Origin: an uncultured archaeon
GTDB taxonomy: Archaea > Aenigmatarchaeota > Aenigmatarchaeia > CG10238-14 > SCSR01
Direction of reading: 5' to 3'
DNA: 64,000 bases
Assembly: GCA_964512235.1 (NCBI GenBank)
Contig: CAZEGD010000001.1
Span: forward strand, 106,874 to 170,873
The translations under genes and the position numbers were made by a program. How positions within the stretch are numbered: the stretch's first letter is position 1; each line of letters starts with the position of its first letter. The notes beneath the pieces are model-generated. The model was not told the origin of the DNA and did not search any database. It was given only the letters and a program-made list of their open reading frames with translations. This document shows, piece after piece, positions 17,837 to 52,018 of this stretch.

Positions 17837-17931
17837 AGCTCGGGAGGGGATTTGAACCCCTAATCTCTCGCTCTGCAGGCGATTCTGCTCAGATTTCTCT
17901 GATGCGCATTGCCAGATTCTGCCACCCGAGC
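17837..17931 (-). tRNA. tRNA-Cys(GCA) with a putative 21-nt non-canonical intron in the 5' side of the anticodon stem
   Basis: Read on the minus strand. Acceptor GCTCGGG/CCCGAGC, T-arm AGGGG-TTCAAAT-CCCCT, anticodon loop CTGCAGA. Removing ATCAGAGAAATCTGAGCAGAA restores the stem CTCGC/GCGAG and a 74-nt tRNA. Confidence 0.75.
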
Positions 17932-23240: not shown

Positions 23241-23344
23241 GCCGAGGTGGCAGAATCTGGTTAATGCGCACGGCTGGAAACTATTTACTTAGACAAGAAC
23301 CGTGTGGGCTTCGGCCCGTCTGGGTTCAAATCCCAGCCTCGGCG
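23241..23344 (+). tRNA. tRNA-Ser(GGA) with a canonical 37/38 intron (about 19 nt, 23280-23298)
   Basis: Acceptor GCCGAGG/CCTCGGC, anticodon stem CACGG/CCGTG, loop CTGGAA..A, long variable arm TGGGCTTCGGCCCGT, T-arm CTGGG-TTCAAAT-CCCAG. Confidence 0.85.
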
Positions 23345-41744: not shown

Positions 41745-41869
41745 GCTGGTGTAGATCAGTCTGGTTAGATCGCCGTGCTCATAAACTTTTATGAGCGTTG
41801 ATAGCGAGTGCTAAATGAGATACGAAAGGTGATACGCGGAAGTCGCGAGTTCAAATCTCGCCACCAGCA
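41745..41869 (+). tRNA. tRNA-Met(CAT), elongator-like (or Ile2), with a canonical-position intron of about 50 nt
   Basis: Acceptor GCTGGTG/CACCAGC, stem CCGTG/CGCGG, loop CTCATA. The intron begins near 41784 and contains TATGAG, complementary to the anticodon loop. T-arm GCGAG-TTCAAAT-CTCGC. Confidence 0.85.
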
Positions 41870-43567: not shown

Positions 43568-44232
43568 CCAATTCTGGTTGATCCTGCCAGAGGCCATTGC
43601 TATCCGAGTTCGACTAAGCCATGCGAGCCGTGAGGGGTTAAGCCCTCGGCGGACTGCTCCGTAATGCACAGATAACCTACCCTAAGGTGGGAGATAATCT
43701 CGAGAAATTGAGGCTAATATCCCATAGGTATCCGAGGCTGGAATGCACGGATACTCAAAGCTCCGGCGCCTTAGGATGGGACTGTGTCCTATCAGGCTGT
43801 TGCCGGTGTAAAGAACCAGCAAACCTATAACGGGTACGGGCTATGGAAGTAGGAGCCCGGAGATGGATTCTGAGACATGAATCCAGGTACTACGGTACGC
43901 AGCAGGCGCGAAACCTTTACAATGCATTAACGTGCGATAAGGGGACTCGGAGTGCTCCAGCACTGCTGGAGCTTTTGCCTACTGAAAACGGGTAAGCGAA
44001 TAAGGGCTGGGTAATACAGGTGCCAGCCGCCGCGGTAATACCTGAGGCCCGAGTGATGGCCAGCTTTATTGGGTCTAAAGCGTCCGTAGCCGGTTTGGTA
44101 AGTTCTTGCTGAAATCCTCCGGTAAACTGGAGGGCGTGGTGAGAATACTACCAGACTTGAGACCGGGAGAGGGTGGGGGTACTCGTAGGGGAGGGGTTAA
44201 ATCCTGTAATCCTGCGGGGACCACCTGTGGCG

Positions 44233-44262
44233 TTGGTTGCTCGTCGCGAGCGACTGCTACAA
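44233..44262 (+). other. 30-nt hairpin insertion inside the conserved GTGGCG|AAGGCG motif of the 16S
   Basis: TTGGTTGCTCGTCGCGAGCGACTGCTACAA. Contains an 8-bp stem GTTGCTCG/CGAGCGAC. Confidence 0.6.
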
Positions 44263-44273
44263 AAGGCGCCCAC

Positions 44274-44305
<32 letters not shown>

Positions 44306-44896
44306 GTGGGTAGCGATTGGGATTAGATACCCCAGTAGTCCACGCCGTAAACGATGCCCGCTTGGTGTAGCATGCTTCTTGGGAGTATGCTGTGCCGGAG
44401 CGTAGGTGTTAAGCGGGCCACCTGGGAACTACGACCGCAAGGTTGAAACTTAAGGGAATTGGCGGGGGAGCACACAAGGGGTGTGCACTGCGGTTCAATT
44501 GGATTCAACGCCGGAAATCTCACCAGGGCCGACGGCAGGATGATGGTCAGTCTGAAGGGCTTACCTGACAAGCCGAGAGGTGGTGCATGGCCATCGCCAG
44601 CTCGTACCGTGAGGCGTGCGCTTAAGTGCGTTAACGAGCGAGACCCACATCTTATGTTGCAATCTTGATTTCCGAATCAGGAGCACTCATAAGAGACCGC
44701 TGGTGATAAATCAGAGGAAGGAGTGGGCGACGGTAGGTCTGTATGCCCTGAATGTCCTGGGCTACACGCGGTGCACAATGTATGCCACAGTGGGATGCTA
44801 CCGCGAAAGCGGACGCGAACCCCTTAAAAGCATACTCAGTTCAGATCGAAGGCTGTAACTCGCCTTCGTGAAGCCGGAATCCCTAGTAAGCGAACG

Positions 44897-45017
44897 TCAT
44901 CAAGCCAAAGCTTTGTTGATGACGATAATGCACCACTCTGATGTATTGACGAAGCTTGTCTTCGTCTTTGCAATAATGATGAGTAAAAAATAAAGAATCA
45001 GAGCTTTAGCGTGAAAT
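44897..45017 (+). other. AT-rich insertion of roughly 113 nt in the apical loop of the GCGAACG/CGTTCGC hairpin of the 16S (E. coli position about 1360)
   Basis: The canonical loop is 7-9 nt; here it is 121 nt. Contains the C/D-box-like strings TTGATGA, CTGA, ATGATGA and CAGA. Confidence 0.6.
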
Positions 45018-45024
45018 CGTTCGC

Positions 45025-45062
<38 letters not shown>

Positions 45063-45152
45063 GCCAATCGAGTGGAGTTTAAACGAGACTTGCTTTGCTG
45101 CTTCGGCAGTAAAAGTGGGCCGAGTTTCGGTTCCGCGAGAAGGGCTAAGTCG

Positions 45153-45285
45153 CCACTTCAAGAGTTGTGCGAGTTTTAAGATGAAAAAATGGCTTGACTC
45201 TGACATTGCTTTGACGCACTTCGTGCGTCGGTGCAATGATTGATGAGTCGGAGGTGAATTGATTAAACATCATCTCTTGGAGCGA
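45153..45285 (+). other. insertion of roughly 133 nt between AAGTCG and TAA(A)CAAGGTAGCCGTA near the 16S 3' end
   Basis: It interrupts the conserved AAGTCGTAACAAGG string. The ends can pair (CAAGAG/CTCTTG). Confidence 0.6.
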
Positions 45286-45344
45286 TAAACAAGGTAGCCG
45301 TACGGGAACGTGCGGCTGGATCACCTCCTTAAGATCCAAGTGTG

Positions 45345-48827: not shown

Positions 48828-48853
48828 GGATCAAACTGGCAATAGAGGTCTGC
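48828..48853 (+). other. 23S processing helix, 5' strand (bulge-helix-bulge)
   Basis: GGATCAAAC-TGGC-AAT-AGAGGTCTGC pairs with 51993-52018. This gives 9 bp, an AAA bulge, 4 bp, an AAT bulge and 10 bp. Confidence 0.8.
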
Positions 48854-51245
48854 TGCGCCAGCCACTTGGTGGATGGCTTGGTTCCAGACGCCGAAGAAGG
48901 TCGTAGCAAGCTGCGATAAGCCTGGGTTAGCCGCATGCGGGCTTAGACCCCAGGATCGCCGAATGCAACTAGTAGCTTTGGCTGATGCGAGAGCATTGGG
49001 AACGCGGCGAATTGAAGCATCTTAGTAGCCGCAGGAAAAGAAAACAATTGTGATACCGTGAGTAACGGCGAGTAAAAGCGGTATAGGGCAAACCGAATCT
49101 ATGCCGAAAGGCAATAGAGTTGTGGTGTTTGGACTTGTGTCTTTCCCAACCAGTTGACCGGAAATCCGCTGGGACGCGGTGCGGTAAAGGGTGATAGCCC
49201 CGTACGGGAAGACTGGGAGGAAAATGGCAAGTATCCAGAGTACTGCTCCTCGATTATGGAGTAGGAATATGCCGGGCATTAACCGGCAACCCTAAACACG
49301 TCTGGAGACCGATAGTGAAGTAGTATGATGACAGAAGGCTGAAAAGTACCGCGAAAGCGGGGTGAAAAGAATCTGAAACCAAGTTGGCAATAGTCTGGTA
49401 CGGCGCGGAAGGTGCTGCCTGGAAGGAAATGTGCGCAAGCACGAAGTACGACGGGTAGCTTACAGTGTCGTGCCATCCGTTTTGAAGAACGGGACAGGGA
49501 GTTTATTTCAGTAGTGAGGTTAAGCTGTTAAGCAGTGTAGCCGTAGCGAAAGCGACAGGTCCGTATGCGCAAGCAGTGGGACGTGGTGTGAAAGCGCCAG
49601 AAATTACTGGGATAGGACCCGAAACCAGTCGATCTAACCCTGGGTAGGATGAAGTTGCGCGAAAGCGCAATGGAGGTCCGTTACCGTTGCTGAGTCACAT
49701 ATCGCTCGGGTGACCTGGGGATAGGGGTGAAAAGCCTAACGAGACTGGTGATAGCTGGTTCCTCTCGAAATGCATCTAAGTGCAGCCTGGTCCGAGGTGT
49801 GACATGGGGTAGAGCTACTGATTGGATTGTCAAGGCCCGAAAGGGTCAGCTTTCCTGTCAAACTCCGAATCCATGCCTACCGTAGACGACCGGAGTGAGG
49901 GCTCTTGGGTTAAGCCCGAGACCCAAAAGGGAAACAACCCCAACTGAGGTTAAGGTCTCTAAATGCCGGCTAAACGAGAAAGGGAGTCTAAACTCTCAGA
50001 CAGTAGGACTGTAGGCTCAGAAGCAGCCACCAGTCAAAAAGTGCGTAACAGCTTACCTACCGAGGGTTTGGGCCCTGAAAATGGAAGAGACTAAGCCGGC
50101 TACCGATACCCCAGACTATTCTGTTGAGCAGAATAGTGGTAGAGAGGCGTCCTGCGCGGACAGAAGCTTGGGCGTAAGCTCTAGTAGACCGCGTAGGATT
50201 GAAAATCCTGCCGAAAGTAGCAGCATAGCTGGGCGAGAATCCCAGTCGCCTAAAGGATGCGGGTTTGCCAGCAATGGTTATCAACTGGCAGTTAGTCGGT
50301 CCTAACCTAAATCTTAACCGAACTTAGGGAATGGCAAAGACGTTAATATTCGTCTACCATGAAGGTACACGCGGCAACGCAAGTTAAGCGTCTGACGCTT
50401 CGGGATAAGTCAACGTAAGTCAACTATTGAAATCTGTGGAGTCTTATAACGAGGAGAAACAGATGAATGTGGAAGTAGCTCCGTGTATGCGGAGTTTGGC
50501 TGGTTCCTGGAGCCCATGAAAAGGATGCTTATCGGATCCTTCATGACCGTACCAAGAACCGACACAGGTATCCATGCTGAGAAGGCAATGGTGTGTTGGG
50601 AGAACCCAGTCTAGGGAACTCGGCAAATTAGTGGTGTACGTTCGCAAGAAACCATGCCTGTAATCTTGAACCGGGCGTCCGCATAAGCGAGGCAATCGGG
50701 AAGGGATTGCAGGTTGCAATAACTAGGGGAAAGCGTCTGTTTAACAAAAACGTAGGAGAGCGCTAATGCGAAAGCACTTGTACGCTCTCTGATGCCTGCC
50801 CAGTATCGGTGTGTTAAAACCTGTTTCAACAGGTCGAAGCCCCGGTAAACGGCGGCGGTAACTCTGACCGTCATAAAGTAGCGTAATCCCTTGTCGTTTA
50901 ATTGACGACCCGTCTGAATGGCTTAACGACTTTTCCACTGTCCCAGGCTGGGACCCAGCGAACTTGCTATTCTGGTGAATAGGCCAGAGACCTCCAGTGG
51001 GAAACGTAGACCCCGTGGAACTTTACTGCAGTTTGATGTTGTGATCCGGCTGCGATCGTATAGAGTAGATAGGACTCGTTATCAGGCTGATCCGTCAGGT
51101 GAAAGCTGAGAGGAAAGTGTAACACTATCCCTTTGTTGCTGTATCACTTACTCCTCGGAGGACAGCATTTAATGGGCAGTTCGGCTGGGGTGGTACTCCC
51201 TTGAGAATGCATCAAGGGAGCCCAAAGATCAGCTCATCGAGGTCA

Positions 51246-51337
51246 CAATAAGAGTCATAAATGATTAAACCACTCCAGATTGAGCGCTTAGGCGCTATGA
51301 TAATTGGGTGTAGCTAATGATGGGCTCTTATTGCCCC
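51246..51337 (+). other. candidate insertion of roughly 90 nt in a 23S hairpin loop about 150 nt upstream of the GGGGATAA motif
   Basis: The stem TCGAG/CTCGA normally closes a short GTCGGAAAT-type loop. Here the loop holds an AT-rich element closed by AATAAGAG/CTCTTATT. Confidence 0.45.
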
Positions 51338-51588
51338 AAAGAAATCTCGAGTAGAATGCAAGCGTAAAAGCTGGTCTGACCGTATTTCGCAAAGCGAGAA
51401 ATTCGGCTGCGAAAGCATGGGCTAGCGAGACGTCGATTGGCTTTAATGGCCGCCGATGGTATCAGAAAAGCTACCCCGGGGATAATGGAGTCGTGGCCCC
51501 CGAAAGCCCACATTGACGGGGCGCGTTGCTTCATCGTTGTCGCCTCCCCCCTTCCTGGCCGTGCACAAGCGGCCAAGGGTACAGGTGT

Positions 51589-51630
51589 CCAACATTTGCT
51601 TTGGTGCTTTGCACTGATGCATTGTACACA
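51589..51630 (+). other. candidate 42-nt insertion within the 23S A-loop (helix 92) hairpin
   Basis: CAAGGGTACAGGTGT[42 nt]TACTGGTTAAAG. Removing the 42 nt gives GGGTA-CAGG-TGTTA-CTGG-TTAAAG. The consensus is GGGTA-TGGC-TGTTC-GCCA-TTTAAAG. Confidence 0.5.
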
Positions 51631-51992
51631 TACTGGTTAAAGGGGGACGCTAGGTGGGTTCAGAACGTTGTGAGACAGTTCGGTCGCTATCTACTGGAGG
51701 TGTCGGTTGTCTGACCGGAAGGAAGGGAAAGTACGAAAGGAACACCCTCCCGTGGCCTCTAGTCTATCGGTTGTTCGAAGCATGGCCGAGCAGCCACGCC
51801 ATAGCGGATAAGAGCTGAAAGCATCTAAGCTCGAAACCGCCCGGAAAAATAGACAACCATTCACAAAGCTGACTGGCAACAGCCGGCGGAGTGACGAAGG
51901 CACTCGTAGACTACGAGTTTGATAGAACAGGGGTGTAAGCATCAAGCGTTCGCGCGAGGTGTTCAGCCCGCTGTTACTAATCGCCTGAGGTG

Positions 51993-52018
51993 GCAGACCT
52001 CTGCTAAAAGTTTGATCC
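51993..52018 (+). other. 23S processing helix, 3' strand
   Basis: GCAGACCTCT-GCTA-AAA-GTTTGATCC. Confidence 0.8.

Follow-up and report, generated by a model that had tools for sequence, protein, structure and literature searches.

The window, the 64,000-nt stretch of DNA analysed here, comes from the genome of a small DPANN archaeon, a metagenome-type assembly of 677 kb in 16 contigs that is 89% complete. It carries two large rRNA genes:

43571-45329, + strand: 16S rRNA gene, located with Rfam
48846-52000, + strand: 23S rRNA gene, host of the element described below (Rfam RF02540, 2473 bits, model positions 1-2987)

A search of the organism's own 677-kb genome returned a single match to the 23S gene, giving a copy number of one. 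The original prediction had placed a 42-nt insertion at 51589-51630, inside the A-loop of this rRNA. We aligned the gene with the Rfam archaeal LSU covariance model, in which the window reads GGGUACAGGUGU, 43 further nucleotides and ACUGGUUAAAG, against UGU and 2 nucleotides in the model, in the loop of the hairpin preceding UUAAAG. This hairpin is helix 92 (H92) and its loop is the A-loop. As the extra bases lie within the H92 loop in this alignment, they are not part of a neighbouring variable helix, and no intact H92 was found elsewhere. The spacing between CAAGGGT and TTAAAG is enlarged as had been noticed, with 56 nt in the window versus 15 nt in relatives.

To define the boundaries of the insertion we turned to related genomes. 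We searched 61 relatives with 401 nt spanning the site and obtained a 23S match in 45 of them; those intron-less relatives in which H92 was read out carry it uninterrupted, as GCCAAGGGU-ACAGG-UGUCC-ACUGG-UUAAA, with minor variants in the loop (UGUUC or UGCCC) and the stem (GCAGG/ACUGA). In several of them the BLAST pieces stop at query position 192 and restart at 233 while the subject bases are adjacent. About 45 relatives, at family and order level, thus lack the insert in their 23S and read as predicted for the spliced product. Measured against them, the window has a surplus of 41 nt at 51591-51631; as an A occurs at either end, 51592-51632 fits just as well. The insertion itself was therefore correctly recognised, in the Rfam alignment as well as among relatives, while its limits had been drawn 1-2 nt off. 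Deleting the 41 nt gives ...CAGGUGUCC^ACUGG..., with the loop UGUCC followed by A as in the intron-less relatives; the UGUUA loop first proposed is replaced by UGUCC-A under both the comparison and the cut rule described below. The CAGG/CTGG stem read at first is not fully complementary, and H92 instead has the stem that is normal for this lineage, CAG/CUG (3 bp) with a closing G.A pair.

Positions are related to E. coli numbering through our own alignment. We take U51586 and G51587 to be the equivalents of U2552 and G2553, and C51590 and A51632 those of C2556 and 2557, which would place the insert after 2556; CAG 51582-51584 presumably corresponds to 2548-2550 and GUGU 51585-51588 to the A-loop bases 2551-2554.

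A bulge-helix-bulge motif at the insertion boundaries

We examined the junctions for a bulge-helix-bulge (BHB) fold, using the rule that a 4-bp central helix is followed on each strand by a 3-nt bulge that is cut after its second base. The rule was verified on the tRNA-Met(CAU) of the window, where it yields a 50-nt intron at the canonical position 37/38 and a mature tRNA of 75 nt. This tRNA gene (41745-41869, with its canonical BHB intron at 41785-41834) was found by Rfam and missed by ARAGORN. At the H92 insert, a strict BHB of the kind that had been proposed as a check is present, made up of the following parts:

51582-51584, + strand: outer helix h, 5' strand CAG, part of the native H92 stem; pairs with CUG 51633-51635
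51585-51588, + strand: central helix H, exon strand GUGU; four Watson-Crick pairs with ACAC 51626-51629
51589-51591, + strand: bulge 1, CC|A; predicted 5' cut 51590/51591, identical to the comparative boundary
51591-51631, + strand: putative intron of 41 nt, AACAUUUGCUUUGGUGCUUUGCACUGAUGCAUUGUACACAU, following the C2556 equivalent; about 45 relatives lack it, and metagenome contig L040 has a homologue
51592-51625, + strand: hairpin of the intron, with the inner helix h' (ACA/UGU) at its base, then UGC/GCA and a 7-bp stem capped by a 3-nt loop; present in both the minimum free energy (MFE) and the BHB-constrained folds
51592-51594 and 51623-51625, + strand: the h' strands ACA and UGU, continued by the 3-bp and 7-bp stems
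51626-51629, + strand: central helix H, intron strand ACAC; pairs with GUGU
51630-51632, + strand: bulge 2, AU|A; predicted 3' cut 51631/51632, A51632 becoming the 2557 equivalent
51633-51635, + strand: outer helix h, 3' strand CUG; pairs with CAG 51582-51584

The insert has the strict hBHBh' form, with an outer helix of 3 bp, a central helix of four Watson-Crick pairs and an inner helix of 3 bp that is extended by a longer hairpin; the outer and inner helices adjoining the bulges are only 3 bp each. The pairing of GTGT with ACAC noted in the original prediction turned out to be the central helix of this motif, and its exon strand includes the equivalents of U2552 and G2553. The predicted cuts, 51590|51591 and 51631|51632, coincide with one of the two boundary choices left by the comparison, and the predicted spliced product GGGUACAGGUGUCC^ACUGGUUAAAG is identical to the H92 of the intron-less relatives. 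Forming the motif costs 0.3 kcal/mol, the BHB-constrained fold having an energy of -16.3 kcal/mol versus -16.6 kcal/mol for the MFE fold.

The motif alone is insufficient as proof. A loose long-range scan of the rRNA region found strict BHB-like geometry in 469 of ~12.9 million (i,j) pairs (~3.6e-5), and the two rRNA genes contain 24 strict short-range matches. As such geometry is not rare in rRNA, the case rests on the coincidence of the motif with an independently determined boundary, for which we estimate a chance probability of roughly 1e-4, and on covariation.

Other identities for the insert were considered as well. The 41 nt matched no Rfam family, with nothing meaningful at E<=10, and no group I or group II intron family of Rfam reached its gathering threshold in the window; the insert is, moreover, only 41 nt long. 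It contains no homing-endonuclease ORF, for which it is too short. An intron-borne box C/D guide was rejected because the boxes are not conserved: the window has only an overlapping CUGAUGC string, which is not kept in the contigs L040-L047 described below, and 41 nt are too short for a full guide. The intron is thus without a gene and without a recognisable RNA function.

Same-site introns in relatives and metagenomes

We scanned JGI metagenome contigs for DPANN-type H92 with 21-51 extra loop bases and obtained eight contigs (L040-L047) with introns at the same site, which range from 28 to 43 nt with the window included. The nine loci can be sorted into four types of intron (41/43, 28-29 and 34 nt long) whose interiors are unrelated, and the motif is kept in all of them. 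Their common architecture is CAG-GUG(U/C)-CC|A ... (A/G)CA(C/U)-A(A/U)|A-CUG, bulge 2 of the other same-site introns being AA|A or UA|A. The outer helix CAG/CUG is unchanged in all intron-bearing and intron-less relatives, while the fourth pair of the central helix covaries with the exon base, U-A in the window and L040 and C-G in L041-L047 and in the genome G152 introduced below. All three h' pairs differ between intron types yet remain paired. In a core alignment anchored on the splice sites, 98% of the cells are paired and four of the ten pairs show changes on both sides, whereas slid 3' partners gave 18-48% pairing and no shuffle attained the observed covariation score.

The closest of these loci is L040, which groups with the window as its sister in a 23S tree of 600 columns (92% identity) and carries a homologous 43-nt intron. 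An unconstrained RNAalifold prediction from the two sequences recovered the BHB itself, with four compensatory pairs located in h' and the apical stem. L040 also bears on whether the insert might be an assembly artefact or part of a decaying rRNA pseudogene. The assembly is in 16 contigs and 89% complete, and such artefacts do arise at this position: we ran a generic scan of one genome per GTDB species, the window's genome left out, for insertions of 15-45 nt between CAAGGGU and UUAAAG, and its two bacterial matches were tandem duplications produced by assembly in bacterial MAGs. Against an artefact or pseudogene in the window stand the homologous intron of L040, found in an independent metagenome contig with 92% identical flanking 23S, the score of 2473 bits that the whole 23S attains end to end, the fact that the 41 nt do not repeat neighbouring sequence, and the absence of any other 23S copy. 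We consider this explanation extremely improbable.

The distribution of the intron among genomes is patchy. The nearest GTDB representatives (L002-L007, 82-86% identical over this part of the 23S) are without it, the other two metagenomic intron groups lie elsewhere within the same family-level clade, and the 23S tree requires at least three gains or losses. We then searched the phylum with a spliced 180-nt query, which matched in 180 of 371 genomes. Among the matches listed, the H92 site is interrupted only in the window's genome and in two others, G128 and G152. G128 has a 32-nt BHB intron at the same site as the window. In G152, which is related at the order level, exactly this site holds a strict BHB intron of 705 nt (L048, G152:C26, + strand, 312-1016), with an outer helix of 3 bp, a central helix of 4 bp and an inner helix of 16 bp. 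This intron contains two overlapping ORFs on its minus strand, of 141 and 90 aa, that match LAGLIDADG_3 at 19 and 23.9 bits (cut-off 22.5) and look like a split or frameshifted homing endonuclease gene.

Two further observations concern the same hairpin. In G128, H92 is split by two 32-nt mini-introns that leave an 8-nt micro-exon, AGGUGUCC, between them (L049, G128:C2, + strand, 433-504). The upstream one lies after the C2548 equivalent and has the HBh' form; the outer helix of the downstream intron draws on bases that flank the upstream one on either side, an indication that the two would be removed in order. In G047, a contig (G047:C14:1) opens with the very first base of the 3' exon (ACUGG...); an intron at the same H92 site, or polymorphism for one, might have broken the assembly here.

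These comparisons also allow us to weigh the reading that the 41 nt are a lineage-specific expansion of H92, retained in the mature rRNA and remodelling the A-loop. DPANN rRNAs do carry many insertions, and one of 98 nt in the same 23S (51247-51344), lacking a canonical BHB, may itself be retained. If the H92 insert were kept, however, the equivalents of G2553 and U2552 would sit in a helix, and there would be no reason to preserve two 3-nt bulges 4 bp apart, with compensatory changes, across four unrelated inserts. It lies, furthermore, in the A-loop of the peptidyl-transferase centre and not in a peripheral variable helix, and the closest relatives are without it. The same site also holds the 705-nt version with LAGLIDADG ORFs, which cannot be an expansion segment. 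Retention therefore appears very unlikely to us.

As for its history, the 41-nt intron of the window is most likely what is left, after much loss, of a mobile intron whose homing endonuclease targeted this site. At this one site, the 705-nt intron with a LAGLIDADG gene and the hairpins of 43, 41, 34, 32 and 28-29 nt make up a series in which one can see how mobile introns may be reduced until only the splicing motif remains. The series fits the endonuclease-bearing, remnant and bare-hairpin forms known from a single locus elsewhere (PMC4496867).

Splicing enzymes and predicted excision

We next asked whether the genome encodes enzymes that could remove the insert. A single gene for the tRNA-splicing endonuclease EndA was found, encoding 193 aa with a TIGR00324 score of 107.8 bits (cut-off 59.6) and the N-terminal (PF02778) and catalytic (PF01974) domains; one gene of this kind would fit the homotetramer type. 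The ligase RtcB is also encoded (503.7 bits). EndA leaves 2',3'-cyclic phosphate and 5'-OH ends, which are joined by RtcB-type ligases (PMC4090602).

Taken together, we consider it highly probable that 51591-51631 is an archaeal BHB mini-intron in the A-loop of the sole 23S gene, excised by the tRNA-splicing enzymes. In the precursor, the native H92 stem CAG/CUG would serve as the outer helix, and the A-loop bases GUGU (2551-2554) would pair with the 3' end of the intron, ACAC, to form the 4-bp central helix. The bulges CC|A and AU|A would then present the scissile bonds, EndA would cut after 51590 and after 51631, and RtcB would join the exons into ...CAGGUGUCC-ACUGG..., the ordinary A-loop of the lineage. 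RtcB would probably also circularise the 41-nt intron.

That an element at this place needs to be excised had already been argued in the original prediction, and the view is supported by the alignment, the single 23S copy, the strict BHB and the compensatory changes at the same site. G2553 pairs with C75 of the A-site tRNA, and the A-loop bases must be free in the mature ribosome. As the central helix sequesters the G2553 equivalent, the unspliced product could not form a normal A-loop; and as there is only one 23S gene, a functional ribosome would need both removal of the intron and rejoining of the exons.

The second of these steps is the one that might fail. EndA could cut the BHB without the exons being rejoined, leaving a mature 23S in two fragments that are broken inside the A-loop and held together by the structure of the ribosome. 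Fragmented rRNAs occur in other organisms, and the motif ensures that the endonuclease recognises the site but does not ensure ligation. If the rRNA were nicked between 2556 and 2557, however, the five bases of the loop in contact with the A-site tRNA would be left on a free 3' end. In addition, RtcB is encoded, the spliced sequence equals the continuous H92 of the relatives exactly, and all archaeal rRNA BHB introns studied are spliced with exon ligation (PMC4496867, PMC4090602). We therefore regard an unligated A-loop as quite improbable. Each of the three alternatives (unligated exons, a retained expansion, or an artefact) explains less than splicing does.

If the intron is recognised, this organism has an ordinary ribosome; without the intron call its 23S appears to have a destroyed A-loop. 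With this assignment, archaeal rRNA gains an intron position in the core of the peptidyl-transferase centre, and tRNA-type introns of DPANN archaea would extend even to the loop whose bases pair with the A-site tRNA. On the practical side, introns of this kind interfere in these lineages with probes and primers based on rRNA and with its automated annotation.

Other inserts and comparison with known introns

The rRNA genes of the window hold several further inserts. In the 16S, a 30-nt insert at 44233-44262 has a strict BHB at its boundaries, CCU-GUGG-CG|U ... CUAC-AA|A-AGG, with helices h, H and h' of 3, 4 and 10 bp, and is very likely another mini-intron. An insert of 114 nt (44903-45016) lies in a hairpin loop and likewise has a good BHB exactly at its boundaries, with an 8-bp outer helix CGAACG.../...CGUUCG, the central helix UCAU/GUGA and the bulges CA|A and AA|U; its removal restores a 7-nt loop, UCAUCAU, like that of the Rfam consensus. 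A third insert of roughly 132 nt (~45153-45284) follows AAGUCG near the 3' end, at about E. coli 1497/1498, where the Rfam alignment is confused. No canonical BHB was found at the boundaries of this insert that restore the consensus, and its only BHB-like fold (cuts 45155|56 and 45287|88, H UCGC/GCGA, h' 8 bp, no h) would give the product AAGUCGCCA^AACAAGG and not the conserved AAGUCGUAACAAGG. In the 23S, the 98-nt insert at 51247-51344 occupies the loop of a domain V hairpin (about position 2400 of the Rfam model) and has a terminal helix of 9 bp, CAAUAAGAG/CUCUUAUUG, as well as several strings resembling UGAUGA; no canonical BHB was found at its boundaries. In three relatives (L025, L026 and L028) this loop is also occupied, but by different inserts.

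Two tRNA-like matches in the window are also unusual. The Rfam tRNA match at 23241-23344 is 104 nt long, with a long variable arm and a GGA-like anticodon region, and an intron could not be placed in it by the strict rule; an odd 95-nt ARAGORN 'tRNA-???' lies at 17837-17931 on the minus strand.

Other parts of domain V are interrupted in relatives. The genomes G041 and G053 (L009 and L011) have BHB introns of 32 and 38 nt, CUGGGU|...|UCAGAAC, between the equivalents of U2584 and U2585 in the peptidyl-transferase ring. In other relatives the BLAST pieces break near 2584/2585 and at the window equivalents 51511/12, 51672/73 and about 51738. One further genome (L050, G131:C1) has a 31-nt insert immediately 3' of H92, CACUAGU-CAAAUUACUAGAGUAUGUUCUCUAGUUAGAC-UCAAAGGGG, at which no BHB that restores the consensus was found.

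The generic scan, in addition to its bacterial matches, returned five Thermoproteota MAGs from Acidilobaceae, Pyrobaculum and Desulfurococcaceae (L033, L034, L036, L037 and L039) with H92 introns of 33-44 nt. These lie between the equivalents of U2552 and G2553 and have a 4-bp central helix, 3-nt bulges and an inner helix of 6-8 bp. A strict BHB reading was rejected for them, as its splice products destroy the loop, and the HBh' reading is preferred. Immediately before CAAGGGU, L034 and L039 have sequence that does not resemble rRNA, hinting at another intron that ends there. Like the insert of the window, the Thermoproteota introns are mini-introns in the loop of the same hairpin, with a 4-bp central helix that uses A-loop or stem bases, 3-nt bulges and a long inner helix; unlike it, they lie 4 nt upstream, lack an outer helix under our rule (relaxed HBh'), belong to a different phylum and are unrelated in sequence. 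Short H92 introns, as called from these sequences, are rare; at least two archaeal phyla have them, at sites separated by four bases.

One might speculate further that the H92 intron is not just a passive remnant but acts as a late-assembly lock, its pairing with the U2552 and G2553 equivalents keeping the A-loop inert and shielded from modification until EndA and RtcB act, and that the H92 region is a multi-site homing hotspot, with introns after 2548, 2552, 2556 and 2584 and order-dependent splicing in G128. With such a lock, these DPANN cells would rely on the tRNA-splicing machinery to activate their ribosomes. We think this combined proposal unlikely.

BHB introns in rRNA are a known kind of element, and the A-loop of H92 is a site at which they are rarely seen; our literature search found no paper describing an intron in H92 or the A-loop. 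BHB introns have long been known from the rRNA genes of Thermoproteales and Desulfurococcales (Jay & Inskeep 2015, PMC4496867). The short hairpin introns described there resemble that of the window in being below 50 nt, in having no ORF and a BHB core made of exon and intron, in residing in highly conserved and functionally central rRNA, and in that the same sites also hold homing-endonuclease or remnant versions. Their hosts are hyperthermophilic crenarchaeotes, in contrast to the mesophile-type, small-genome DPANN archaeon studied here; the intron of the window also has the strict hBHBh' form, and its A-loop site after 2556 was not found among the described sites. Within DPANN, BHB introns of LSU rRNA genes have been mentioned alongside group I introns (Nawrocki, Jones & Eddy 2018, PMC6125680), and 16S introns are reported from Micrarchaeota (Golyshina 2017, PMC5498576). 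Both accounts agree with the window in that DPANN rRNA genes carry introns, BHB types included, with the peptidyl-transferase region as a hotspot (group I introns at 2500 and 2593); they differ in that the sites listed are those of group I introns, BHB introns are mentioned in passing and none lies in H92.

A further parallel is the pre-tRNA intron at 37/38, as in the tRNA-Met(CAU) of the window. It shares with the H92 intron the motif, the cut rule and presumably the enzymes EndA and RtcB, and in both, loop bases (of the anticodon in one case and of the A-loop in the other) pair with the 3' end of the intron. The two differ in their host, a tRNA versus the 23S rRNA, and in their outer helix, which is the anticodon stem in the former and H92 in the latter.
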